Shown here: positions 990-16,930 of the stretch, one piece after another | How the letters are laid out: every line of letters starts with the position of its first letter | Numbering within the stretch: position 1 is the stretch's first letter | DNA from: a virus | Taxonomy: Duplodnaviria > Heunggongvirae > Uroviricota > Caudoviricetes | DNA: 16,930 bases | Reading direction: 5' to 3' (one strand) | Virus record (IMG/VR): IMGVR_UViG_3300000279_000019 | Notes under the pieces: generated by a model | The model's database searches: none | What the model was told of the DNA's origin: nothing | What the model saw: the letters and a program-made list of their open reading frames with translations, nothing else | Position numbers and translations under genes: made by a program

Positions 990-2588
990 TTACCAATTAA
1001 AAATATAATCTTTTATTTTAAGATACATATCAACTTTCCCAGACCATTTTGATGCACTCTCTTTCATCTTTTCAATAACATCATCAATCAGTAAGTCTCT
1101 TCCTTTTACAATCAATTGATCATCATCAATACCCTCTGGTGCAAATTCATATATGTGCATGCTTAGATTAGACTTCTGAGTATGAGGGAATGAATCTTTT
1201 TCCACACACATATCAATAAACTCATTAATAGATAGTTCTTTCTGTTTACACATCATAAGTAATAATTCGAACTCATCAATTGTTATATAGTAAATTCTTT
1301 TTAGATCAATGGGGATACTATGATATTTTTCAGATAACTCAGTTGATAAATCAGGGTTAATAAAATCCTGCACAACCATTGCATTTGATATATGATGATC
1401 CCGATGCACCACAATTAACATTGAATCTTTCGAAGATGGTTTTCTCATCTCTATTTTATTTAAGTTAAAAGCACATTCCTGACCTTGATAAATCCCTTTA
1501 ATAAAACTCTTATTCAACCTTTCCTTTAGCAACTGAGCATTATTAGATGTTTTAACGAACTTTGCAGGCTCTATTGCCTTCGAGTCAATATAAACTATTG
1601 AATCTCCCTCTGAAATAACAAAATCTACGGACTTGCAATTTTTTATTGCATTATCACTATAAATCCTCTTAACCTCCCTTTCAGTCTTAAAGTTATAATT
1701 GTACTTATCAAGAAAGCGAGAAATATAAAGTTCCATCGTCTTACCAAATTTTTCTTTATAAGATTCCTTATAGACCTGCTTGAACAATTCTGGAACTAGG
1801 TTGACAAACCCTGACTTCATGATTCTTTTGCATAATATCACTACACCATCGCCATCTAAAAACATTGGTTTACTGAGGAATGGTGTATCTTCATAATACT
1901 CAGCGGTAATGTTTTTATCCAATTTATATGGGGCAATAAAATCTCTCACACCATCAATTTTTAAGCATGTTAATTCCAAAAATCTTTTCACTTGTTCCGG
2001 ACCAAATATCGGAACCAAGTTTATTATCAAGTGTTTAAATGGAATAACCTCTGATTCTATATCAGGATTAATACATGAAATAGCGGTAAAATAACATGCC
2101 ATTTTGTAATAGTTTTCCAAATGTAAACCAGTACATTCTAAAAACTTATCTTTATAATATGATTCATCATTCAAGCAATACCAAATATACTGTCTTGTTA
2201 ATGAATTGGCATTAAATTTATCAGTTGATTGATAAAGCAACTGATTTATCACCATTCGTCTAAGGCTTAGCATAACTTTATCATCAACGATTAAATTAGA
2301 TGCTTCTAGTTGCAAGTTATAGATTAAGTTGATAATATCAACAAAATCATTTTTACTCATTTCTTTTGCAGGCTTTTTTTCCTTCATGCAAAACTTCCAT
2401 TTCATTGCCAGATAGCAACACCAAGGGAAATTGGAAACAATACCCACCTCGACATCCCTTACTTTTTGGAAGTGTTCATAAAAATTTCTCAAAAAAGAAA
2501 CATCACTAAAATATGACAATCTTTTCTTAATCGCATCAACTTTTATAGAATATGACACTGGTGTCATTGTTTTTATTGCCACGCTCAT
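990..2588 (-). CDS. Hypothetical 532-aa protein, AT-rich cargo gene, no family recognised; possible PD-(D/E)xK-like motif
   Basis: Longest ORF in the window with ATG start and AAGG about 8 nt upstream; K/N/I/Y-rich composition from AT-rich DNA, in contrast to the roughly balanced backbone; segment VDFVISEGDSIVYIDSK resembles a D...(D/E)xK nuclease core; no Walker A motif seen. Confidence 0.75.
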   Translation of the reverse strand: MSVAIKTMTPVSYSIKVDAIKKRLSYFSDVSFLRNFYEHFQKVRDVEVGIVSNFPWCCYLAMKWKFCMKEKKPAKEMSKNDFVDIINLIYNLQLEASNLIVDDKVMLSLRRMVINQLLYQSTDKFNANSLTRQYIWYCLNDESYYKDKFLECTGLHLENYYKMACYFTAISCINPDIESEVIPFKHLIINLVPIFGPEQVKRFLELTCLKIDGVRDFIAPYKLDKNITAEYYEDTPFLSKPMFLDGDGVVILCKRIMKSGFVNLVPELFKQVYKESYKEKFGKTMELYISRFLDKYNYNFKTEREVKRIYSDNAIKNCKSVDFVISEGDSIVYIDSKAIEPAKFVKTSNNAQLLKERLNKSFIKGIYQGQECAFNLNKIEMRKPSSKDSMLIVVHRDHHISNAMVVQDFINPDLSTELSEKYHSIPIDLKRIYYITIDEFELLLMMCKQKELSINEFIDMCVEKDSFPHTQKSNLSMHIYEFAPEGIDDDQLIVKGRDLLIDDVIEKMKESASKWSGKVDMYLKIKDYIFNW

Positions 2589-3193
2589 AAAAAACCTTTT
2601 ATGATAAACATAGAGAAATATTTTATTTAAAAATTATCAAATACACGTTAATAAATATACATTTTTTAATTTTGCGTGCAACCCTATCCCCAATCAATAC
2701 AAAATATTGTGCACACAAAATTGAAGAAGCCTATAACTATAGGTGCCTACTGACACCTATCAAGAAACTTGTTCACCCCCGACACAATTTAATTTGGCGT
2801 AGCTCACAATGTTCTCCTCAGCACACCTACCCCCCACTTTATAGGACAGTTTTCATGCAGTACATGCATAAACAAAAGCTCATCAGTTCTGGTGGTTCCT
2901 CACCACGAACATGCAGATAATACCTCAAAACATCATGTAACAATGTTGGCATTACGCCACCAGCCACAAAAAAGCCCTACCCTTAGGCTTAATGTTTGGC
3001 TTGGCTGTTGGCTTACTATAACGCCCCGCTCACCGTCGCAGCCTGTTCGGTTTCCGCCACTGATACGGCCTCACATCATCATGCTGATAGATGTCGACGG
3101 GCTACCAGTACCATTTGCTCACCAACCCCATATTTTCCATGTTAATCTTCTCTTTCCACATGCTTTGTATGGTAATAAGCAAAAGGAAAAATG

Positions 3194-3448
3194 ATGAACA
3201 CTAAGGTGAAAGAAGCAGTAAAATGTTGGGCTTCTAGTCCAACGTGGTTTAGCAGGCATCCAATGGATACGGCGGAGTTCCGACGGGCTGTTTCAAATCT
3301 CAAGCGCATTACCCCTACCCCATCTTTCGAAGAAATCAAAGAAGCGATCATGTTCTTTGTTTCCGATGCGCCAACAATGCTAGGTACGCCGTCGGATATT
3401 CCTCAGGCGGTTCATGACTTCGCTGGAAAAATTTATAACAAGCTGTGA
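3194..3448 (+). CDS. Hypothetical small protein (84 aa)
   Basis: AAGGA at 3183-3187 with 6-nt spacer to ATG 3194 (an ATG at 3191 is also possible); TGA at 3446-3448; followed by a hairpin terminator. Only confident plus-strand gene in the left half. Confidence 0.55.
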   Translation: MNTKVKEAVKCWASSPTWFSRHPMDTAEFRRAVSNLKRITPTPSFEEIKEAIMFFVSDAPTMLGTPSDIPQAVHDFAGKIYNKL

Positions 3449-3454
3449 GCAAAA

Positions 3455-3475
3455 TGCGGGCTATCCCAGCCCGCA
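3455..3475. terminator. Bidirectional hairpin between convergent genes
   Basis: tgcgggct / atccc / agcccgca, an 8-bp GC-rich stem; A-run on the plus side gives a T-run after the hairpin for the minus-strand transcript. Confidence 0.5.
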
Positions 3476-3482
3476 TCCCTAA

Positions 3483-3665
3483 TTAACGCCGTAACTTGTT
3501 TGGCTTCGTCCATTGGTACGCCTTTTCGTTTTCCCGCCGCTGGTGGCGTTCCTGTTGCAGCACAACGGAAACAGGCGCTGAACACCTGTTAATTTTGCTT
3601 GCTGGTTGTTTGATTCCGGCAATGCTGCGGATCATCTCCAGCATATCGGCTTCGGTGATGGTCAT
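3483..3665 (-). CDS. Hypothetical small protein (60 aa), downstream partner of the 193-aa membrane protein
   Basis: ATG at 3665 preceded by AGGAAA with a 4-nt spacer (sequence taggaaacctATG); earlier in-frame ATGs at 3692 and 3686 lack an SD. Product MTITEADMLEMIRS..., basic C-terminus. Confidence 0.45.
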   Translation of the reverse strand: MTITEADMLEMIRSIAGIKQPASKINRCSAPVSVVLQQERHQRRENEKAYQWTKPNKLRR

Positions 3666-3714
3666 AGGTTTCCTATCAGCACTCATATCCAATTAATAAG
3701 TTCAATACAATGGA

Positions 3715-4296
3715 TTATCCCGTTTTAGTGACTAACCATTGCAGAATAACGATAATTAAATATGTTAATGTGCCAGTTCCAAGAAGTATTAATAATTGAT
3801 AGCAACGTAGGGCAATATTACTAATCGATTTTTGCATCACGATATTCACTGGCTCAGCCACACACTCTTTAGATCTTATCGATAGAATACTTGGAACTTC
3901 TCTATTTATTGATAATATTTCACATTGAATAGACTCACCAGGTGCAAGGCTTTCAAACTTGATAATATAGCGACCATCCTGTTCAATATTTTCTTCAAAA
4001 TGGTGGACAGGCCAAAAATTAATATGCATTGGCTTATAGTTAAAAACCAATGAGATATTAGTAGCACTTTCTCGCCCTTCATTAACAAGAATAATAGATC
4101 GTGTATACACCAACTGTGAATTAGATATTACCTCACCATTGGCATTCCGTAAGGGTTCATTGAGAAGAAAAGTAAATCCATGCTGATAACCATAGGATAA
4201 CTTTGCCTTGCTTTTAAATCTGTTATTCAGTATCCATGTTAAAATCGTTATAAAAAAAGAAAATAGTTCTTTCCCATAAAGACTAAAAAAACTCAT
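3715..4296 (-). CDS. Hypothetical membrane protein (193 aa) with N- and C-terminal hydrophobic helices, AT-rich cargo
   Basis: GAAGGA SD 6 nt before ATG 4296 (GTG at 4299 also in frame); hydrophobic stretches FSFFITILTWIL and LLILLGTGTLTYLIIVILQWLV flank a roughly 140-aa soluble domain; AT-rich like the 532-aa gene. Confidence 0.65.
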   Translation of the reverse strand: MSFFSLYGKELFSFFITILTWILNNRFKSKAKLSYGYQHGFTFLLNEPLRNANGEVISNSQLVYTRSIILVNEGRESATNISLVFNYKPMHINFWPVHHFEENIEQDGRYIIKFESLAPGESIQCEILSINREVPSILSIRSKECVAEPVNIVMQKSISNIALRCYQLLILLGTGTLTYLIIVILQWLVTKTG

Positions 4297-4430
4297 CACA
4301 CATTTCCTTCAGTAATCTGATTCTGCTGTCAAAGCTACCAGCACTATAGTCATTCATCCACATTGCGACAAGAAGGTTACAGCACGTCCAATCACACCTT
4401 AGGAAATCTTAGGGGGCTGGTTGACACTTT

Positions 4431-4696: not shown

Positions 4697-5224
4697 TCAT
4701 TGATGGTCTGATTTTTCCCACTCAGCCAGGGCGTTTAACCCGGCTTCACTCCATGATTCCGGTTCATCGGGATAATCACCTGCAACATAGCAGAGTTCGC
4801 AACGCAGCATACGAATTGCCAGCCTGGCATTACCTCGCAAATTGTATTTTTCAAAGTAATGCTGCCCTTCATCATCCTCAAGGCAGATAGCACCATCATC
4901 AAGAAAGTGCACTTCCCAGCCTAATTCCCCGGCTGCATACAGCACACGCTGCTGTATGCCCTCGTCCGTTACTGGCGCAGGAATTTTACCGTCTCTGGCC
5001 TTAACTGCTTTCCAGAACTCGCCCCATGTCATTTCCAGCGTTCTTTCTGGCCACATTTCAGAAATGGTGCCTTTCCCCTGTGCTGGTGGGCTGTTCCGCT
5101 GCTCTGTCGCTTCCACATCAATTTTTTTACCGGACATGACCACTTCGCCTTTCTCGAGCCAGTCGTAAACTGTCTGGCGGCTTACGCCTTTGTATTTGGC
5201 GTATTCGGCTTTACTCATCAACAT
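4697..5224 (-). CDS. DNA-binding protein with N-terminal lambda Nu1-like (terminase small subunit-type) winged HTH; possible packaging-redirection or regulatory protein
   Basis: GAGGTGA SD 5 nt upstream of ATG 5224; N-terminus SKAEYAKYKGVSRQTVYDWLEKGEV closely parallels Nu1 KKQLADIFGASIRTIQNWQEQGMPV; acidic C-terminal half. Confidence 0.55.
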   Translation of the reverse strand: MLMSKAEYAKYKGVSRQTVYDWLEKGEVVMSGKKIDVEATEQRNSPPAQGKGTISEMWPERTLEMTWGEFWKAVKARDGKIPAPVTDEGIQQRVLYAAGELGWEVHFLDDGAICLEDDEGQHYFEKYNLRGNARLAIRMLRCELCYVAGDYPDEPESWSEAGLNALAEWEKSDHQ

Positions 5225-5323
5225 GTAGCTCACCTCATGCATATACGATAAAAAATAATTTCATGCGGAAAGGGAATGCGTTGTGGGTATGGAGGAAAGG
5301 GGCAATAACCGCCCCTTACTGAT

Positions 5324-8539: not shown

Positions 8540-8874
8540 TGTCTACCAACTGTCTACCGATATAATTGATTGATTTATTTAATGTTATTAACACATAACA
8601 AAAAAACAATCTGCAAACTGTCTACCAACGGTCTACCGCATTAATACATTGATAATTAATGATTTTTACTAAATGGTAGACAGTGTAGACAGTTAAAAGA
8701 GAAATTTAAAAAATGCCCCCTTAACTATCTGTTTTTTATATACCCCCCGTGGTTTAGGAATATAGAAATAACTGTCTACCTCTCTACCACATTGAAAATA
8801 TCTTTATAATTCAAAATATTAATTGGTAGATGGTTGGTAGAGGGTTAAGTGAATCTGTCTACCAACCGTCTACC
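8540..8874. repeat. Origin of replication: iteron array of (T)GTCTACC octamers in both orientations with an AT-rich spacer
   Basis: TGTCTACC at 8540, 8551, 8619, 8773, 8856; GTCTACC at 8631, 8868; inverted GGTAGACA/GTAGACA at 8675, 8685; GGTAGA at 8825, 8836; pairs spaced 11 bp; AT-rich block 8560-8615; lies directly 3' of the primase gene. Confidence 0.7.
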
Positions 8875-8901
8875 TTTACGTTTCAGCTTATAAATTTCGT
8901 A

Positions 8902-10707
8902 TTATGTTCTGTCGTTAATCCCTGTAGCTGCTGGCAACCAGCCATCAGCATCATCATCTAACAGAACATTTGTTATCACTCGCCCTTTATCCGGGCCTTT
9001 AGTGCATTTAGCCCGCTTATACTCCTTTCCGTATTCCGCCATAGCTCCTGGCATATCAGTACCAAAGCGTGTCAGTGATACTGGTTTTCCCAGGCCATGC
9101 GCTGACATATAGGCTAAATAAGCATGATACAGGTATCGCCTCGGGCTAAATGGCACTATTTCCGCATTGCCCACCATCATTCCTTCACATTTAACCAACG
9201 ACATCAGATAGCCGCAAAAGTCCACCAGTGAATCACCTTCGCGCTTTATCAACAGCGCTTCTTCTGATTTTTGCTGCTCATAAAGTAGTCTTTTAGCTTC
9301 GTCCTGGTCGGTAAATCGTGTTAGCAAATGGCGAATCACTACCGCCAGTTCGCCTTCTATCTTTTCCGCCAGCATGGGATCGCGTTCGTTCTCCGGTACG
9401 ACCTCAGAGAAATTAAATATCACCCTACGACGCGAGATCCCCCCGCTTCGGTCACTGAATGACATGGCGTTATTGTTTACCGCAAGCACTACTGCCGGAA
9501 TACGTGTGGAGTAGGGGGCTTTATGTTTCGGATCAATTGCCACCTTGTCGCCGCCAGTAATTGCCTTAATTCCTGCACCATCGCCAGCGTAGCGAGTCAT
9601 ATCCGGCATGATAATCAGCGAAAAGCCAACTACTAACGCGCGTTCCCTTGCGTCTTCCAGAGCCTTCATGCTTGCCGATACTGTGTTGGCCTTACCCGCC
9701 AGCATGGTACAAATCTCAGCCATCACACTTTTACCGCTTCCGCCTGGGCCTGTTACCTCAAGGAATAACTGCCAGTCGTACCGGTTCGCCAGCACCATGA
9801 ATAATGCCGCCAGTACGCGATCAGCTTTACGATCATTATCTGCCACCGAACGACGCAGCCACTTCCAGAAATTCGGCGCATGTGTTGCCAGCGTTTCCCC
9901 CTCTGCTGGTGGGCTGAACGGTAATTCACTGGCATTTAACAACCAGTCATTTTTGTTATGCTCCCGAAAATTTCCCGTCCGGGTATCAAATACCCCGTTA
10001 CTGAATCCAATAAGATTCCTGTCTGCCCCGCCCATAACAGGCAGGCTCAATTTCATTGTGTCTACGGCAAATTTAATGGCGTTTTGCGAATAACTGATTC
10101 CAGCATCAATAAAAATCTTCGCCATAGACCGCTGGAGTTCCTTATCAGATACAGGCACCCAGACAATTCCGTTGTAATGGTGAACTACATCAGAATCATC
10201 ATTTATAGCCAGTGCTCTTCCATAATATTCAAGTAACACTTCCCCTCTCTGGCTGGCTCCCATCTGATTTAGTGCTGGCCTGGATAGGTCAATATTTTTT
10301 GTGGCTAATTTCATCGCTGAAACTTCCCCACTCTCTGCCTGTTCGCGGATCCGTTGCAGGTAGTCGCGCCAGTTTTCCGGCTCCCGGTCGGTGATACCTT
10401 TGTATAATTTCGCGTCCTGTACACCAGCCAGCGCCAGCTTTTCAGCAATAGCATTGATCTGGATTGGCTCTATCTCCCCCGCGAGATAGACACGCGCAAA
10501 GCGGCGTTCATCGTCGACAATGCGGATATTCGCCAGGTCTGCCAGTTGCTTTGGCCCCAGGTAAACAGGAGGCACGTTATCGCCGTGTTTTCGTCCTTCG
10601 CTTTCAATCCAGTGTTGAGCATGGGCGTAAGCATCCGTCCCGGCAAAAATGATTACCTCGGTGAATTTATCCTTCGGCTGATATTTTAAATTCGGTGCGT
10701 TTTTCAC
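8902..10707 (-). CDS. P4 alpha-like primase/helicase (601 aa)
   Basis: GTG start with GGAGG SD 6 nt upstream; Walker A GPGGSGKS; D5_N-like FSNGVFDTRTG motif; general architecture typical of phage/plasmid P4-family primases; iterons immediately downstream. Confidence 0.85.
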   Translation of the reverse strand: MKNAPNLKYQPKDKFTEVIIFAGTDAYAHAQHWIESEGRKHGDNVPPVYLGPKQLADLANIRIVDDERRFARVYLAGEIEPIQINAIAEKLALAGVQDAKLYKGITDREPENWRDYLQRIREQAESGEVSAMKLATKNIDLSRPALNQMGASQRGEVLLEYYGRALAINDDSDVVHHYNGIVWVPVSDKELQRSMAKIFIDAGISYSQNAIKFAVDTMKLSLPVMGGADRNLIGFSNGVFDTRTGNFREHNKNDWLLNASELPFSPPAEGETLATHAPNFWKWLRRSVADNDRKADRVLAALFMVLANRYDWQLFLEVTGPGGSGKSVMAEICTMLAGKANTVSASMKALEDARERALVVGFSLIIMPDMTRYAGDGAGIKAITGGDKVAIDPKHKAPYSTRIPAVVLAVNNNAMSFSDRSGGISRRRVIFNFSEVVPENERDPMLAEKIEGELAVVIRHLLTRFTDQDEAKRLLYEQQKSEEALLIKREGDSLVDFCGYLMSLVKCEGMMVGNAEIVPFSPRRYLYHAYLAYMSAHGLGKPVSLTRFGTDMPGAMAEYGKEYKRAKCTKGPDKGRVITNVLLDDDADGWLPAATGINDRT

Positions 10708-10994
10708 TTCTTACCTCCCGCAACCAACATTGCCCGGATTTTTTTAATATTCGTGGCTGCACGTCTCGCCACTGCCTGTTGTTTGTTTTCCACCAGAATA
10801 AAATCACGCTCAAACTGACGGCGCGGCATTACGCAGTCATATTCGTAAGCCTCACGGCGGTAGGTGATATTGCCTGGCGTAACGTGACGAATAACCACTC
10901 GTCCCCCACGTCTGGTGTCGCGGTAAATATCTCCGTGTCTGATTTCAGGCCGAGAGAGACCGCTGGCAGTAAAGCCAGAATTTTTCCTTTTCAT
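10704..10994 (-). CDS. Hypothetical basic protein (96 aa), last small ORF before primase
   Basis: ATG 10994 with AGGAAAA SD; stop overlaps the primase GTG (GTGA coupling); Arg/Lys-rich. Confidence 0.5.
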   Translation of the reverse strand: MKRKNSGFTASGLSRPEIRHGDIYRDTRRGGRVVIRHVTPGNITYRREAYEYDCVMPRRQFERDFILVENKQQAVARRAATNIKKIRAMLVAGGKK

Positions 10995-10998
10995 GGTT

Positions 10999-11199
10999 TT
11001 ATTTTCCTGTCAGCAGTTCCGGTTTTATTTCTGCACGAATACAGAGTTCAGAAAAAAATTCAGGAGAACCCACAATCTCATTACTTTTCAGTCGGCATTG
11101 TGATTTCACTTTTTCTTTATCAAGGTAAACCAGCACGCGTCCGGTGAAATCATCTGGCACATTAAGCACTACGGGTACATGCGCTTCATGATTATGCAT
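10999..11199 (-). CDS. Hypothetical protein (66 aa)
   Basis: ATG 11199 with GGAGGA SD; 8-nt overlap with upstream ORF. Confidence 0.45.
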   Translation of the reverse strand: MHNHEAHVPVVLNVPDDFTGRVLVYLDKEKVKSQCRLKSNEIVGSPEFFSELCIRAEIKPELLTGK

Positions 11200-11425
11200 G
11201 GCTTACATCCTCCAGAGATTTTCTTCTGTAACGCGTCTCTGCCACATATTCAGCATAGTCCGACGCAATACTAAGAATCATTTCACCCTCTGACTTGTAG
11301 CCACTGGTATTGATAAGAAAATATGCAGCTTTCATCATGTCAGCAATGCTCAACAATGCGCCCGATGTATCTTCCGGTGCGCCATCAAACTCCTGTTTCA
11401 GGGAATTAAAACGATCATCACGCAT
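11192..11425 (-). CDS. Hypothetical acidic protein (77 aa)
   Basis: ATG 11425 preceded by a G-rich SD; overlaps neighbours on both sides. Confidence 0.5.
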   Translation of the reverse strand: MRDDRFNSLKQEFDGAPEDTSGALLSIADMMKAAYFLINTSGYKSEGEMILSIASDYAEYVAETRYRRKSLEDVSHA

Positions 11426-11783
11426 GTTTACCCCCCTGAATGACCTGATAACCGCAACTGGTCAGCAATTCGATAAATTCCGGCAGTGTGCCGAAACAGC
11501 AATCATCACGCAGACGTTCGCAGGATACTTCAACGCCGTTTTCGTAGTGACTCACCATACACCCGGTAAAATGCAGATCATCATCGTGATGGCACGTTGA
11601 CGGCTTAATCAGTCGCGCACGTTCCGCCAGTTCCAGCAATGCTTCAACGCTTCCGGCAATTGCACCATCCGGCAGGTGATAATTACTTACCACGCGTCCA
11701 TTCTCCACGTTGACCAGTAGCTGCCCGGAAAATATCTCGTCAAACTGAATGCTGTTAAGGTCAGAAATTGACAGGTTATGCAT
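11418..11783 (-). CDS. Hypothetical protein (121 aa)
   Basis: ATG 11783 with AGGAGG SD 6-7 nt upstream (the track ORF starts further up at 11801 without an SD); product MHNLSISDLNSIQFDE... Confidence 0.55.
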   Translation of the reverse strand: MHNLSISDLNSIQFDEIFSGQLLVNVENGRVVSNYHLPDGAIAGSVEALLELAERARLIKPSTCHHDDDLHFTGCMVSHYENGVEVSCERLRDDCCFGTLPEFIELLTSCGYQVIQGGKHA

Positions 11784-12000
11784 GGTGCACCTCCTGTACA
11801 TCAGCCATGATAATTTTTCCGGCCTTATCCAGTGCCTGATCGGCTTTCAGCTGCACAAATGCTAAATAATGGGAGATGCATTCTGATTCTCTGGCTGCGT
11901 GTTTATGCGCCACACCAGCGATAGCAGAAATCTCAATAAGTGAATCCATCAGCGTTTTGATAGCGTCTACCGCTGCATCAGGCCATGTTGCATTACACAT
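11776..12000 (-). CDS. Hypothetical protein (74 aa)
   Basis: ATG 12000 in an ATGTGTAA overlap with the upstream gene stop; coupled to the next gene by ATGCATAA. Confidence 0.5.
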   Translation of the reverse strand: MCNATWPDAAVDAIKTLMDSLIEISAIAGVAHKHAARESECISHYLAFVQLKADQALDKAGKIIMADVQEVHHA

Positions 12001-12358
12001 GCTCCACCTCCTGGCGAATACGGGCAGCGAATACCATCACGCAGCCATCAGGAGATTGCTGGCGTGCTTCCTGTTCGCTGGTGGCCTCGATGTGAATCAC
12101 GCGCGGTTGTGCCGTACTCAGGGCGATAAAACGCCAGATAAAATTGTTTTCGCATTTCTGAATAAACAACGTGTTTTCTTCGCGCCCTTTCCATGTTGCC
12201 GAGATATAGCCCATGTCATTGAGCATCTCGCAGGCATCAACCAGCGTATCGGCGGCTACATGAACAGTGTTTTTACCGTCAGCCATGCAATCACGGTGCA
12301 CCGCCAGGAAGGTGTATATAAATTTAGGGTGAGTTTGGGTATGCTGTGCCCCAGCCAT
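11993..12358 (-). CDS. Hypothetical protein (121 aa), first gene of the replication operon
   Basis: ATG 12358 with GAGGT SD about 5 nt upstream, located at the C-terminal end of a 512-aa open frame whose upstream part I consider spurious; product MAGAQHTQTHPKFIYTFLAVHRD... Confidence 0.5.
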   Translation of the reverse strand: MAGAQHTQTHPKFIYTFLAVHRDCMADGKNTVHVAADTLVDACEMLNDMGYISATWKGREENTLFIQKCENNFIWRFIALSTAQPRVIHIEATSEQEARQQSPDGCVMVFAARIRQEVEHV

Positions 12359-12447
12359 AATCGTTACCTCATTTAACGGTTTGGTTAGACGCCCCGCTAC
12401 TGCCGCAAACAGTTCGGGGCGTTGTCGTTTATATCCTCTTACTGAGG

Positions 12448-12523
12448 TGTGATTTAAATTAAATTTAACTGAATCACAGGTCAAGTATTTTTTGTGATTC
12501 TTTTTTGTGTATACTGAATCACA
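12448..12523. promoter_or_regulatory. Two dyad-symmetric operators TGTGATT-N17-AATCACA in the divergent promoter region
   Basis: TGTGATT 12448-12454 / AATCACA 12472-12478 and TGTGATT 12493-12499 / AATCACA 12517-12523, 45 bp centre to centre; TATACT -10-like hexamer at 12510-12515; sits between the divergent RHH-like gene and the replication operon. Confidence 0.55.
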
Positions 12524-12545
12524 TCTTTTGTTTAGGAGAATGCAC

Positions 12546-12851
12546 ATGGCAAAAAACACTATCAACGACAAATCAAAACAGATTTCAATTCGTATCCCAC
12601 ATGATGCTTTTGAAGGCATGGAATCCGTAAAACTGGACGGCGAAAGCAACGCCGGATTCATAGTAACCGCCATGCGTGGTGAGATCGCCCGCCGCCAGGC
12701 AGAAGGAAGCGGAGAAAATCCCCTAGTTTCTTCGCTCAATGCACTGGCGCAGGTGGAAAAAATCGGAGTCAAAGCTGTCGAGGAGATCGGGCAGCTCGTC
12801 ACCGTCGCACGTGAAGAACTCCAGCGCCGCAAGGCCAAAGAATCAGAATAA
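12546..12851 (+). CDS. Putative ribbon-helix-helix-type transcriptional regulator (101 aa), candidate master repressor of the element
   Basis: AGGAG SD 8 nt upstream of ATG 12546; N-terminal KQISIRIPHDAFEGM resembles an RHH beta-strand/helix start; only plus-strand gene here, divergent from the replication operon and adjacent to the dyad operators. Confidence 0.55.
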   Translation: MAKNTINDKSKQISIRIPHDAFEGMESVKLDGESNAGFIVTAMRGEIARRQAEGSGENPLVSSLNALAQVEKIGVKAVEEIGQLVTVAREELQRRKAKESE

Positions 12852-13523
12852 TAACTATCATCGCCGTGGTGTGAGGAACTCCGGCGCATTGCTTTACAGG
12901 TACACAGAATGACCAACAAAGAATCGACCAATACACCATCACCGGCACGGAAAAGACAGCGCAGAAAGATAGCGTACGAATATGAGTCAGACAGATTCGC
13001 GCCCTGTGCGTTTATCCTTGAGAAATTCCTTAAAGAGTACAGGCGCACAAAAATGGGGTCGCATACCTGGAAAACATCGCGGCATGGCAATGTTAAAGAG
13101 CAGGAATAGCCCACCAGCAAGCCAGCACACTGATCACATTGCCCACCAGCCGCAAATCTGGCATTGTTGGCGATGTGTTCAAGTGTGTAGCTTTCCCACT
13201 GGTGGCCCTCTGCGGTCGCCTTTGTTTTATCCAGAACGAAATTAGACATCAGATTGATCATCACCTTGCGACCTGACAAAATCGCATCAGTCGCGCCACC
13301 AGCAAAATTTTTTGCTTTCCGGACAGCGTGACCAACGACATTTTGCAGCAAAATATTCTGCATTTCTGGCGTGCTGTAGTAACGGTGATCAGCGCCTTCA
13401 CTCTGTGCGACCACAACGCTATAATCTGCCTCGTAGACAGTAAGCAATATGGCGCAGTAGGCTATTCGTTCACAAAGGCGCTCCGGCAACGGGGCGCTTT
13501 CTCTTTTTGTAACGGTCAGAGCG

Positions 13524-14372
13524 TTACACATGGCTGTTTTCCTCCATGCGACGGGCTAACCAACGCTGCGAAAGACGAATTAATTCAGCTTTCCGCTGGT
13601 GGTAGTCCAGGCCTAACTCAATCAGCGTGATATTGCTCTGCTCAAGGTAAGAAAGGTGCTCAAGCTGCAACGTGCTCATGTGGTCGCGTGGTTCGCCTGT
13701 GATGCCGTTCGCCTGCGTCCACTGTTTTGCAGTCATGCCACCCAGCACGATACGCGCCAGCATATTGGCTTCCGTGGTGTAGTGGTGCTGGAGTGTGTTT
13801 TTACCCAGTTCAGCCCGGTACGCCTCCAGCGCGGCACACATCGGCTTAAAGTAGCTGGCAACGGAGATACGGGCTTTCAGTTCCCGGCGTAACGCTGCGG
13901 AACGCACTGGCGCTACCTTGTGTAGCTCCTCCTCGCATTTGATGAAGTACTGACGAACGGCGCGGCCCTGTTCGGTGCGCTCGACCATCGCCAGTTCTTT
14001 CGCCATGTTCGTGGAGATCAAATAGTCTTCACTGCGACGATCACCGCCGCGCTTTGTTGTCCAATCAAAATCAAACTGTTCAATATTTACACTTTGGTTC
14101 CCCCGTTTCGGGGAATCAAAGTACAAATTATCTACAACTTCAAAATCCACGCCCTTTTTAAATCCGTACTCATCAATGCGTCCTTTAATCCAGGTTGTGA
14201 AATCACGCTTCACACCCAGCGCCTTATGCAACGCTCTGGCGCTAACAATATTGGTTTCACGTCCGCCAATAACGCCGGAAATAACCGGGATAATTTCGCC
14301 GAAATTTTGCAGATTCTGGTTTTCAGGCCGAACGAAGCCCTGCCCCTGTACGGGCGTTTTTCGCTGTTTCAT
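13524..14372 (-). CDS. AntA/AntB-type antirepressor-like protein (282 aa)
   Basis: ATG 14372 with AGGAG SD; segment IIPVISGVIGGRETNIVSARALHKALGVKRDFTTWIKGRIDEYGFKKGVDFEV and later MAKELAMVERTEQGRAVRQYFIKCEE match the AntA-family pattern as I recall it. Confidence 0.65.
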   Translation of the reverse strand: MKQRKTPVQGQGFVRPENQNLQNFGEIIPVISGVIGGRETNIVSARALHKALGVKRDFTTWIKGRIDEYGFKKGVDFEVVDNLYFDSPKRGNQSVNIEQFDFDWTTKRGGDRRSEDYLISTNMAKELAMVERTEQGRAVRQYFIKCEEELHKVAPVRSAALRRELKARISVASYFKPMCAALEAYRAELGKNTLQHHYTTEANMLARIVLGGMTAKQWTQANGITGEPRDHMSTLQLEHLSYLEQSNITLIELGLDYHQRKAELIRLSQRWLARRMEENSHV

Positions 14373-14450: not shown

Positions 14451-14648
14451 TCAGGTAGCTGTTCCGCGTGATTCCGCAATACGCTGATTAATCCACTCGT
14501 CAATTTCACTCTCAACGAAAGCAATAGCTCGCGAGCCAATTTTAACTGATGCAGGAAATTTACCTTGCCCCATAAGGCGATAAATCCATGCCTTGCTATA
14601 TCCAGTTCTACGCTGAACTTCCGTTAAACGAATAAGAGAGTTTGCCAT
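14451..14648 (-). CDS. alpA: AlpA-family regulator / excisionase (65 aa)
   Basis: AAGGTGA SD; LIRLTEVQRRTGYSKAWIYRLMGQGKFP...VESEIDEWINQR aligns with E. coli AlpA ILRLPAVIQKTGMARATIYDWL...IEAEIDEWLSQR. Confidence 0.8.
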   Translation of the reverse strand: MANSLIRLTEVQRRTGYSKAWIYRLMGQGKFPASVKIGSRAIAFVESEIDEWINQRIAESRGTAT

Positions 14649-15718: not shown

Positions 15719-16930
15719 TCACCCGCATTTTCCGAACTCACCATGCACCACATTTCCGCCATGCTCGAGCGAATCCATATAGTCGGCATACCACTGGAGC
15801 ATCTCCCGGCGACCATCCAGATATTGCGCATGGTTGTATGTGCCACGAATTGAGTTTTTATCGACGTGTGCGAGCTGTGTCTCTATCCACGCGGTGTTAT
15901 AGCCCTGCTCATGCAAAATGGTGCTCATGGTGTGCCGGAATCCATGACCAGTAACCTTTCCGTTATAGCCGATGCGTTTAAATACTTGGTTTATGCTAGC
16001 CTCGCTCATTGTTTTCCTTGGATCATTACGGCCGGGAAACATAAGCGGATAATTGCCAGTTAATTCTTTAATCTGCCCAATAAGCGAAAGAGCCTGCTTA
16101 GACAAAGGCACCACATGAGGGCGACGCATTTTCATCCGTGAAGCAGGTATCTCCCAGATAGCCTTGTTGAGATCGATTTCATCCCATAATGCACCGCGCA
16201 GTTCGCCAGTCCGCAAACCGGTGATAATCAGTAGACGAGCCGCCATAACAACCAATGCACTTCCTGAGTAACTGGACAATGCCTTGAAAAAATCAGGTAA
16301 TTCTTTGGCTGTGAGGAAAGGATAATGATTAGATTCATGACCTTGCATCGCGCTGGTGAGATCCGGTGCAGGGTTATACTCAGCACGTCCAGTGACAATT
16401 GCATAGCGGAAAACTTCCCCGCATCGCTGCCTCACTTTTTTGGCTTTTTCGGTAGCACCGCGCCCCTCGATGCGCCGCAGCACATTCAGCAGTTCAAGTG
16501 GTTTGATTTCGGCGATTGGTTTTTTGCCAATGTAAGGGAACACATCTTTGTTGAAGGCTTCGAGGATGTCTGAAGCATAACCAGCAGACCATTTTTTTAA
16601 TTTGCTGCTGTGCCACTCAAGGGCAATATCTTTGAAGGTGCTGTTTAACTGCGTTTCCCGGGCAATCTTTTCCTCTCGTTTCGCTTCCATCGGATCGATA
16701 CCCCCAGCGATCCCCCTTTTAGCTTCTTCACGTTTTGCACGAGCATCAGCCAAGGTAACTTCAGGATACACACCTAGTGCTAACAGCTTCTCTTTACCAG
16801 CTACACGATATTTGAAGCGCCAATATTTTCCTCCACTAGGTTTTACCAAGAGATACAGACCACCACCATCAGCCAGCTTGTAAGCCTTCTCTTTTGGCTT
16901 GGCAGTGTCTATTTGACGGGCATTGAGTTT
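15719..16930 (-). CDS. int: Tyrosine integrase, P4-type (5' end runs off the window; start codon found at 45..43 in a circular reading)
   Basis: N-terminal KLNARQIDTAKPKEKAYKLADGGGLYLLVKPSGGKYWRFKYRVAGKEKLLALGVYPEVTLADAR is the conserved P4-integrase N-domain; C-terminal catalytic region with HGFRHT and LAHVD motifs and a tyrosine near the end; the track M at 16849 is an internal TTG. Confidence 0.9.
   Translation of the reverse strand, partial: KLNARQIDTAKPKEKAYKLADGGGLYLLVKPSGGKYWRFKYRVAGKEKLLALGVYPEVTLADARAKREEAKRGIAGGIDPMEAKREEKIARETQLNSTFKDIALEWHSSKLKKWSAGYASDILEAFNKDVFPYIGKKPIAEIKPLELLNVLRRIEGRGATEKAKKVRQRCGEVFRYAIVTGRAEYNPAPDLTSAMQGHESNHYPFLTAKELPDFFKALSSYSGSALVVMAARLLIITGLRTGELRGALWDEIDLNKAIWEIPASRMKMRRPHVVPLSKQALSLIGQIKELTGNYPLMFPGRNDPRKTMSEASINQVFKRIGYNGKVTGHGFRHTMSTILHEQGYNTAWIETQLAHVDKNSIRGTYNHAQYLDGRREMLQWYADYMDSLEHGGNVVHGEFGKCG
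16889..16930. repeat. Terminal direct repeat, copy 2 (identical to 1-42)
   Basis: Exact 42/42 identity with positions 1-42; repeat may extend beyond the window edge. Confidence 0.9.

Follow-up and report, generated by a model that had tools for sequence, protein, structure and literature searches.

We examined six small open reading frames (ORFs) that precede a primase gene on the minus strand of IMG/VR virus record IMGVR_UViG_3300000279_000019 (Caudoviricetes), a stretch of 16,930 nucleotides (nt) hereafter called the window. In our judgement these six ORFs probably constitute the translationally coupled early operon of an E. coli satellite of the phage-inducible chromosomal island (PICI) type, which is located at tRNA-Thr/proA and has a layout similar to that of the left operon in phage P4. 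The six "hypotheticals" come down to four families: a Kil/Icd effector (ORF1), a split gene (ORF2 and ORF4), a duplicated unit (ORF3 and ORF5) and an RgdR-type protein (ORF6). The operon is of a known kind, annotated in RefSeq, widespread and related to systems under study, with functions that have largely been inferred. To this the analysis adds the reduction in families, the split gene, a mosaic organisation based on the junctions, and a conserved frame resembling P4 eta; current views are not overturned.

All six ORFs behave as genes in comparisons with their relatives. Pairwise ratios of non-synonymous to synonymous substitution rates (dN/dS), calculated against diverged homologues, lie between 0.10 and 0.55 for all six, as under purifying selection, and every ORF falls in a PHROG family with an E value between 1e-18 and 1e-48. 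Each of the exact protein sequences is found on about 300 to more than 1000 E. coli contigs in public collections. Moreover, ten independent assemblies that carry the exact ORF1 have all six ORFs called, with identical boundaries. Of three opposite-strand ORFs checked over the region, one gave a single weak match to a family and the other two gave none. Taken together, these comparisons indicate that all six ORFs are protein-coding.

The junctions give the array its character (coordinates in Table 1). From ORF1 to ORF5, consecutive genes share 8-nt overlaps, which read in order ATGTGTAA, ATGCATAA, ATGCGTGA and again ATGCATAA; all four have the form ATGNNTRA, each with a GGAGG or GGGGGG Shine-Dalgarno (SD) sequence upstream. 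ORF5 is followed by a 4-nt gap (TAA-AACC-ATG), and ORF6 overlaps the primase by 4 nt (GTGA). The ORF5-ORF6 junction is the only one that has no SD of the GGAGG or GGGGGG type. A first-pass annotation of this DNA had stated that every junction overlaps, which holds for five of the six; apart from this one mis-described junction, its coordinates and junction strings proved correct. ORF3 starts at the ATG at 11783, which an AGGAGG precedes by 7 nt; neither RefSeq nor other gene callers take the mechanical first ATG (11801). The block CAGGAGGTG..C-ATG-NN-TRA is found at the ends of ORF1, ORF2, ORF3 and ORF4, and also at the end of the upstream gene for an AntA-type antirepressor. As each start is placed 8 nt (once 4 nt) inside the prior gene or 4 nt past it, with an SD of its own, ribosomes can pass along the chain. 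They would do so from gene to gene down to the primase through the coupled starts, and this coupling would set the stoichiometry of the products and shield the long transcript.

The first gene of the chain belongs to a family met in P4. Residues 73-116 of ORF1 form an Icd-like domain (NCBIfam NF033153, 81 bits, E 5e-23, with a cut-off of 25 bits), and P4 Kil matches the same model at 76 bits. Both proteins are found in phrog_1743, and ORF1 matches phrog_6196 as well. According to the first-pass annotation none of the small ORFs was identifiable. The profile searches correct this: ORF1 is Icd/Kil-like, ORF6 is a DUF4222 protein (PF13973, E 1e-19), and ORFs 2-5 could be placed in PHROG families of unknown function, which come down to two. 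P4 Kil, of 65 residues (aa), is the C-terminal part of the obsolete P4 "cI" ORF, and the label "transcriptional repressor" on the Icd-like PHROG families stems from that obsolete annotation. The N-terminus of ORF1, MAGAQHTQTHPKFIYTFLAV, is of the canonical Kil type; it aligns to the N-terminus of P4 Kil, MATTLTPSHPEFVFVFAAV, and resembles the Klebsiella and Pectobacterium versions too. Between this motif and the Icd domain lies an insert of about 50 aa, and dN/dS over codons 1-72 is about 0.15. The AlphaFold2 (AF2) model of ORF1 (predicted local distance difference test score, pLDDT, 64) shows two beta-beta-alpha-beta units. A tandem repeat at the sequence level was considered and rejected, because 238 of 2000 shuffles reached its score; only the predicted secondary structure repeats. 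A scan of genome contigs with ORF1 gave three loci, and a tblastn search of phages with ORF1 returned one match without reaching P1 Icd. On the plus strand, a 166-aa ORF (11876-12376) antisense to ORF1 has a weak match to phrog_4106 (2.6e-5) opposite the Icd domain; the members of phrog_4106 are probably shadow ORFs that face genes of the Icd-like type.

ORFs 2-5 reduce to two families. In strains 488, FWSEC0003 and O157 C1-057 there is a 154-aa protein (family phrog_2512/phrog_5146) that corresponds to ORF2, a 5-residue linker and ORF4. Indeed, ORF2 (phrog_5146, 1.7e-48; dN/dS 0.21-0.29) aligns to residues 1-73 of these three proteins. ORF4 (phrog_24341, 7.5e-47; dN/dS 0.18-0.55) also matches positions 78-154 of phrog_2512, and its identity to residues 78-154 of the strain 488 and FWSEC0003 proteins is 65-71%. 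In the unsplit genes, the internal SD and ATG of the ORF4 part remain visible in frame. On these alignments, a single 154-aa protein is divided in the window into ORF2 and ORF4, with ORF3 between its halves. ORF4 is predicted to form three helices (AF2 pLDDT up to 75), and its family is limited to Escherichia.

The second family is phrog_340, matched by ORF3 at 2.4e-27 (dN/dS 0.10-0.37) and by ORF5 at 5.7e-18 (dN/dS 0.21-0.39). The N-terminal half of ORF3 is 34% identical to its paralogue ORF5 (E 1e-5), and the two halves of ORF3 align with each other at a score of 47, which none of 2000 shuffles reached. By this measure ORF3 is an internal tandem duplication of a unit present once in ORF5. 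ORF3 has many in-frame deletion variants, and a profile search recovered only 37 relatives of the ORF3/5 family among 1.84 billion representatives. Natural fusions are found as well, one of ORF3 with ORF4 (196 aa) and one of an Icd-like protein with the 154-aa protein (219 aa). Two suggestions about ORF3 were dropped: a zinc finger, because the Cys and His residues are unconserved and the Cys-rich middle is deleted in natural variants, and armadillo-repeat matches in the PDB, which are low-complexity noise. A PDB sequence search with all six ORFs gave nothing usable.

We compared the array with 13 further E. coli islands, which together with the window make a set of 14. All but one of the 13, EcCIMP1, present the same succession: an Icd-like gene (64-153 aa, sometimes in two copies), one to five small ORFs, a gap of 4-6 nt, a DUF4222 gene, a 4-nt overlap and a replicase. 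The junctions in the window and six other E. coli islands comprise 16 overlaps of 8 nt, four of 11 nt and two of 4 nt, and in these seven islands the 4-6 nt gap before DUF4222 and the 4-nt overlap into the replicase are always present. In a Klebsiella locus, an Icd-like gene is followed by two small ORFs and a primase; where the Icd-like gene ends, Klebsiella, Pectobacterium and phage P4 all retain the overlap of 8 nt with the next ORF. Some part of the 2-kb operon query is present in 1410 of 5426 complete E. coli genomes, and at least 80% of it in 27; the most widely shared piece is the Icd domain, and the mosaic break points fall at ORF junctions (query positions 597, 788-826 and 1406). The array is mosaic, and we infer that its cassettes are exchanged in register at the short conserved SD-ATGNNTRA junctions. 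Such exchange would explain how the gene came to be split and how the duplications and fusions arose.

ORF6, at the end of the small ORFs, is the DUF4222 protein (69.8 bits, gathering cut-off 27; phrog_285). It is 52% identical to a 99-aa DUF4222 protein of E. coli O157:H7, and reads IRHGDIY where the O157 protein reads FTRGDIY, that is, HGD instead of RGD. In 13 of the 14 islands, the window included, the DUF4222 gene is directly upstream of the replicase, whatever the replicase type (D5 primase, DUF927 or RepA helicase). The one studied member of the family, RgdR (ECs1581, OI-51, E. coli O157:H7), activates LEE, the enterocyte effacement locus, via Ler and represses motility, and the CFT073 DUF4222 gene c1493 is cited as an RgdR variant (PMC10877973). 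RgdR shares its Pfam family with ORF6, and the O157 DUF4222 gene occupies the same slot, between small ORFs and a RepA helicase; the window protein differs from RgdR in having HGD where RgdR has RGD. The window primase matches the Pfam families D5_N, DUF5906 and Pox_D5 and phrog_864 (DNA primase, 1e-156). Against TIGR01613, the P4-family alpha model, it scores 95.8 bits, with a cut-off of 108.7.

What kind of island carries this operon? The 2-kb operon segment is 100% identical to the chromosome of E. coli strain 537-20. There, the island is found between tRNA-Thr/proA and the pao genes and contains int, a hypothetical gene, an AlpA-type helix-turn-helix (HTH) gene, AntA, an oppositely oriented YlcI/YnfO gene, the operon, ProQ/FinO and PerC. 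The layout is that of Gram-negative PICIs, islands of about 15 kb at a tRNA or fixed site that have an integrase, AlpA and a primase or replicase in one orientation and no structural or lysis genes of phages. Among the window ORFs scanned, there is no capsid, tail, lysis, Sid, Psu or Delta gene, nor a P4 epsilon homologue; ORFs 2-6 show no homology to P4 epsilon, orf151 or orf106 by BLAST, nor do they match the PHROGs of these proteins. P4-like satellites, as de Sousa and colleagues are said to have defined them in 2023, have homologues of epsilon, Sid, Psu and Delta and a P4-family alpha. Because of the EcCIMP1-like site and the layout, and given that the ORFs scanned include no capsid, tail, lysis, Sid, Psu or Delta gene, we file the island, by its gene content, as a Gram-negative PICI with a P4-like early operon and not as a P4-type satellite.

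The layout resembles that of P4. The P4 left operon runs eta/kil - epsilon - orf151 - orf106 - alpha. In both elements the first gene is Icd-like (NF033153), with homologous N-termini, and forms the 3′ end of a long frame that starts near an upstream gene of the AlpA/Vis type. Furthermore, P4 has 8-nt overlaps from kil to epsilon and from epsilon to orf151, and both operons end in a primase. The two differ in that the CI/C4 and isrK RNAs of P4 were not found in the window, in the PHROGs to which ORFs 2-6 belong, and in the lack of Sid, Psu and Delta from the window island. Moreover, the window frame has no Phage_ASH domain and extends over 512 codons, antisense to two plus-strand genes, whereas the P4 frame has 199. 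The analogy with P4-type early operons, drawn in the first-pass annotation, is thus borne out for the layout, the shared Kil family and the 8-nt overlaps of kil-epsilon-orf151, but not for the strict class, in view of the missing epsilon, Sid, Psu, Delta and CI/C4 RNA.

Other known elements share part of this organisation. EcCIMP1 of E. coli MP1 is a PICI whose mobilisation by phage Kapi1 was obtained experimentally (PMC11773190), whereas the window island is known from its genes. The two have the same attachment site, tRNA-Thr beside proA, integrases that are related by consecutive RefSeq accessions rather than by alignment, the order AlpA-type HTH, AntA, Icd-like gene, small ORFs and primase, and PerC too. 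However, EcCIMP1 has six small ORFs (64-200 aa) of other sizes and order, a TOPRIM/DUF927 replicase, a DUF4222 gene that follows AntA, and an "ash family" frame upstream of its Icd-like gene. EcCICFT073 (PMC6092414) is another Gram-negative PICI that we compared, and CFT073 carries the DUF4222 gene c1493. The family name comes from the immI operon of P1 (c4 RNA - icd - ant), where a division inhibitor, linked to an antirepressor, is likewise translated first in a regulated operon. In the window AntA is upstream and not downstream, and c4 RNA was not found. Island E118 (locus 3519-4176) has two tandem Icd-like genes, the second of them behind c4-a1b1 targets and a C4 antisense RNA, as in P1, so that control with and without RNA coexists in one operon.

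A further feature shared with P4 is found upstream of ORF1, whose frame stays open for another 391 codons. The ATG that opens it, at 13531, has a GGAGG of its own and shares an 8-nt overlap with the AntA stop codon (GGAGG-N8-ATGTGTAA). This long frame crosses the promoter region of the operon and is antisense to two plus-strand genes, YlcI/YnfO and a 66-aa gene. It has no stop over 11993-13531, against 22 and 25 in the other two minus-strand frames. In shuffled sequences, the probability of finding no stop was 0.012 for the promoter and leader segment, 0.017 for the segment antisense to YlcI, 0.07 for that antisense to the 66-aa gene, and 0.0004 for the segment 13110-13531. The frame is open over 325-536 codons in 10 of the 14 E. 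coli loci (window included), some of them only 75-80% identical in DNA, and over 348 codons in Klebsiella. In four of these ten open loci, the AlpA-type gene's own stop codon is the first one met upstream in frame. In stretches that face no plus-strand gene, the encoded amino acids are not conserved (dN/dS >1, with few changes), and the frame has no Pfam or PHROG match. Calls of this long frame account for many of the "Icd-like" proteins of 200-600 aa in databases, and such over-long calls probably led RefSeq to flag the ORF1 of strain 537-20 as a pseudogene.

The Kil frame of P4 has 217 open codons, and three Met codons (MMM) give proteins of 197-199 aa, the frame that we take to be the eta of Forti and colleagues (1999). 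In P4, the Kil-type gene forms the 3′ end of a longer frame whose start lies upstream of the operon promoter, and this nested eta/kil arrangement recurs in the window. Translation of P4 eta from an upstream promoter reportedly prevents Rho-dependent termination. The long frame of the window would similarly shield read-through transcripts from Rho, with selection acting on its openness and not on its protein. P4 Eta overlaps the C4 and isrK RNA genes and matches Pfam Phage_ASH (PF10554, 3.8e-23), a family to which the window frame has no match. Phage_ASH corresponds to the middle of P4 Eta (P4 8330-8704), over the isrK-like and C4/CI RNA genes, so that PICI annotations reading "ash family protein" point to frames of the eta type; the conservation of Phage_ASH may largely reflect the RNA genes.

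Functional data for a similarly laid-out operon come from E. coli ECOR61. In the screen of Silas et al., the trigger was orf24, an accessory protein from a T7-like accessory region, and the cell death it provoked was suppressed when transposons had inserted in an Icd-like gene of 121 aa or in the two small ORFs that follow it (10.1101/2023.04.06.535777). Six linked genes, primase included, were needed for reconstitution, and removal of the Icd-like gene, whose product is the likely death effector, abolished the effect (10.1101/2023.04.06.535777). In the P4 satellite of ECOR15, suppressors were found in the AlpA, Icd-like and primase genes (10.1101/2023.04.06.535777). The ECOR61 system is a prophage-encoded unit of six genes, a DNA primase among them. 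As in the window operon, an Icd-like gene with an N-terminal extension stands together with overlapping small ORFs and a primase; this Icd-like gene has 121 codons, and the next ORF overlaps it by 8 nt (Supplementary File 5). These data, the only functional ones from such an operon, point to phage-triggered cell death.

Could the operon then be primarily an abortive-infection or superinfection-exclusion module, in which the small ORFs sense or relay the presence of an incoming phage protein, with the Icd-like protein as death or arrest effector and the primase as a required partner? We regard this as possible, though on the unlikely side, and it overlaps the satellite-operon reading without excluding it. 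The ECOR61 suppressors speak for it, since they hit an Icd-like gene of 121 aa and the two small ORFs behind it, with an 8-nt overlap like that of the window, in a system that required six genes including a primase; so do those of the ECOR15 P4 satellite in the AlpA, Icd-like and primase genes, the rapid turnover of cassettes, which fits an arms race, and an annotated abortive-infection gene beside YlcI in strain SCU-101. However, no model of PADLOC-DB 2.0 is matched by the six ORFs or the primase, and ECOR61 was compared by layout and not by sequence, with small ORFs that differ in length. Reconstitution in a laboratory strain was weak by its authors' own account. Moreover, transposon insertions are polar in a coupled operon, so that hits in the small ORFs need not mean that these act themselves, and the same type of operon is needed for ordinary satellite replication. 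A bolder version, which we find doubtful, takes the array for a modular device that senses phages and kills or arrests the cell, and at the same time takes the long frame for a conserved, sequence-independent anti-Rho device. The Kil/Icd effector and the replicase may then bracket exchangeable small "sensor" cassettes, whose swapping in register at the SD-ATGNNTRA junctions would be the reason why the 154-aa gene is split, units are duplicated and fusions occur in nature; the long frame may be translated solely to guard read-through transcripts where they cross the antisense repressor gene. If this were true, it would generalise the P4 eta mechanism to PICIs that have no CI RNA.

Other explanations assign the ORFs more modest roles. 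That ORFs 2-6 are accessory replication proteins, for origin binding, helicase loading or control of the primase, and are not directed at host or helper, is unlikely in our view. They do immediately precede the replicase, with translational coupling to it, and DUF4222 is tied to it by the 4-nt overlap in 13 of 14 islands despite changes of replicase. But the middle ORFs vary freely in number (1-6) and identity beside the same replicase types, which is unlike essential replication partners; in EcCIMP1 the DUF4222 gene adjoins AntA and not the primase; RgdR, the one studied DUF4222 protein, affects expression of LEE and motility genes; and ORFs 2-6 show no similarity to known loaders or initiators in Pfam, PHROG or NCBIfam. 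Less probable still is an island-stabilising pair, with ORF1 as Icd/Kil toxin and ORF2, or ORF2 together with ORF4, as antidote. P4 Kil reportedly kills when overexpressed (Forti and colleagues, 1999), the 8-nt coupling of the Icd-like gene to the next ORF is the most conserved junction (P4, Klebsiella, Pectobacterium), and a natural 219-aa protein joins an Icd-like protein to the 154-aa protein. However, the ORF after the Icd-like gene differs wholly between islands (74, 106, 121 or 154 aa, or P4 epsilon), which is unlike a specific antidote. P4 epsilon, moreover, has a known role in that position, helper derepression, and searches of Pfam, NCBIfam and PADLOC found no toxin-antitoxin family. 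It is very improbable that several of the ORFs are chance or decaying frames of a cryptic island, and untranslated. In strain 537-20, ORF1 does carry a RefSeq flag as a partial pseudogene, there are many variants that are truncated, fused or shortened by internal deletions, and ORFs 2-5 have no relatives beyond enterobacteria. Yet the flag stems from over-long reference proteins, dN/dS is well under 1 for all six ORFs (the N-terminal extension of ORF1 included), and SDs are present at all junctions but one (ORF5-ORF6). The exact sequences are kept on hundreds of contigs, all six have PHROG matches, and the three opposite-strand ORFs, two unsupported and one with a single weak match, offer little in their place. 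These data largely refute the decaying-frame explanation.

We return to the early operon of a PICI-type satellite, which would be the induction-time programme of that satellite. After induction by the helper, AlpA-dependent or derepressed transcription would express the chain, AlpA being the usual master activator of Gram-negative PICIs (PMC6092414, PMC11773190). The Kil/Icd protein would arrest division or kill the cell, the variable middle cassettes would mediate interactions with helper, host or rival phages, DUF4222 would assist or regulate the replicase, and the primase would replicate the island. Translation of the long frame would protect alpA-antA read-through transcripts from Rho, as in P4 eta. 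Helper derepression or host interference are plausible candidate roles for ORFs 2-5.

Several observations weigh against parts of this scheme. ORFs 2-5 have no match in the PDB (sequence search), Pfam, NCBIfam or PADLOC. The first-pass annotation had proposed structure prediction and fold searches as a check on each of the six ORFs; for ORF1 this yielded the AF2 model (pLDDT 64) but no convincing fold match (best Foldseek E values 0.17 in the PDB and 0.036 in BFVD), and the model of the natural ORF3-ORF4 fusion (pLDDT 56) is too poor for a fold search or an interface. ORF6 lacks the RGD tripeptide at about residue 20, which is reported as necessary for activation of the type III secretion system, an R20C variant being inactive (PMC10877973). 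The candidate promoter of the operon was not called by a consensus scanner, its match to the consensus being weak. As for the long frame, it is not universal, being short in four of the 14 E. coli loci (102-145 codons) and in Pectobacterium (93 codons), and by our own reasoning its openness opposite YlcI is in part due to the composition of YlcI (no Tyr, few His and Gln). Finally, the link with ECOR61 rests on annotation, gene lengths and overlap pattern rather than on compared sequence, and the two small ORFs of ECOR61 measure 61 and 63 aa, against 74 and 121 aa for ORF2 and ORF3.

Satellites of this kind are common, about a quarter of complete E. coli genomes sharing part of the operon. The early operon decides the outcome of a helper infection, be it spread of the satellite, arrest of the cell or its death. 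The analysis also joins three literatures, on P4 kil and eta, on virulence regulation by RgdR and PerC, and on the ECOR61 cell-death screen.

Table 1. Features of the operon and of its surroundings in the window.
Feature	Position	Strand	Remarks
ORF1, 121 aa	12358-11993	minus	Icd/Kil family
ORF2, 74 aa	12000-11776	minus	N-terminal half of 154-aa family
ORF3, 121 aa	11783-11418	minus	duplicated phrog_340 unit
ORF4, 77 aa	11425-11192	minus	C-terminal half of 154-aa family
ORF5, 66 aa	11199-10999	minus	single phrog_340 unit
ORF6, 96 aa	10994-10704	minus	DUF4222/RgdR family
Primase/helicase, 601 aa	10707-8902	minus	GTG start; last gene of the coupled chain
Stop-free frame, 512 codons	11993-13531	minus	3′ end is ORF1; eta-like by analogy with P4 eta/kil
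GC-rich hairpin of the 5′ leader	12389-12422	minus	inverted repeat, arms ACGCCCCG/CGGGGCGT; present in minimum free energy fold
Divergent control region	12443-12523	–	candidate promoter and operator-like repeats
YlcI/YnfO-family gene	12537-12851	plus	NF041551, 64.8 bits; phrog_6522, 6e-57
AntA-type antirepressor, 282 aa	13524-14372	minus	PF08346, 84.5 bits
AlpA-family regulator	14451-14648	minus	PF05930, 69.4 bits
Candidate operon terminator	8794-8879	minus	long hairpin (18-bp stem) and U-rich tail, just past the primase stop
Integrase	15719-16849	as AlpA and primase	
TerS-like HTH protein	4697-5242		weak match

Control of the operon would be exerted from the divergent region ahead of ORF1. 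The candidate promoter has a -35 box TTGACC (12484-12479) and a -10 box TAATTT (12461-12456) at 17-nt spacing, and is accompanied by operator-like repeats, ACTGAATCACA twice, 45 nt apart, and the inverted pair TGTGATTC/GAATCACA. The YlcI/YnfO gene, divergent from the operon and antisense inside the long frame, possibly encodes its repressor: with no C4/CI RNA any immunity must be protein-based, and YlcI/YnfO is the obvious candidate. Antisense control in the manner of P4 and P1 was considered and rejected. Rfam finds C4 in P4 and in island E118 and none in the window, even at E values up to 10 (leader alone), and neither P4 CI nor E118 C4 has meaningful complementarity to the window leader.

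In the leader itself, the GC-rich hairpin is followed by CUAACCAAAC, a GAGG SD and the ATG of ORF1. Unannotated DNA of the phages mEp460, Klebsiella P12620-1 and Morganella IME1369_01 shares about 79% identity with the segment 12299-12425, and the hairpin stem of these relatives has changes on both sides. This segment covers the hairpin, the SD and the first ~20 codons of ORF1; in the lambdoid phage mEp460, the copy adjoins a hok/sok locus, and the ORF1-like ORF is cut to 14 codons. It may be a mobile regulatory module or a remnant. On the minus strand, 12351-12424 has a sub-threshold Rfam match to an R1162-like plasmid antisense RNA (19 bits, E 0.47), with the common pattern hairpin-UAACCA..AAC..AUGGCU, which is probably due to chance. 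At the other end of the operon, the stem of the candidate terminator can be seen in the alignment of a spurious Rfam match (Plastid-psbM).

Some neighbouring genes vary between islands. AntA is intact in the window, but in strain 537-20, whose operon sequence is otherwise the same, its annotation gives a frameshift; the C-terminal part of the window AntA matches the PADLOC candidate PDC-S22 (E 2e-10). In the island of strain SCU-101 (locus 3491-4401), where the eta-like frame is short (140 codons), the gene annotated as phage abortive-infection occupies the plus-strand slot beside YlcI/YnfO, and this slot may be a hotspot for defence cargo. At the far end of the window island, a 532-aa ORF (990-2588) belongs to phrog_14259, of unknown function; strain 537-20 has shorter genes, of 330 and 123 aa, at the same place (locus 2417-3785), which may be a variable cargo slot.

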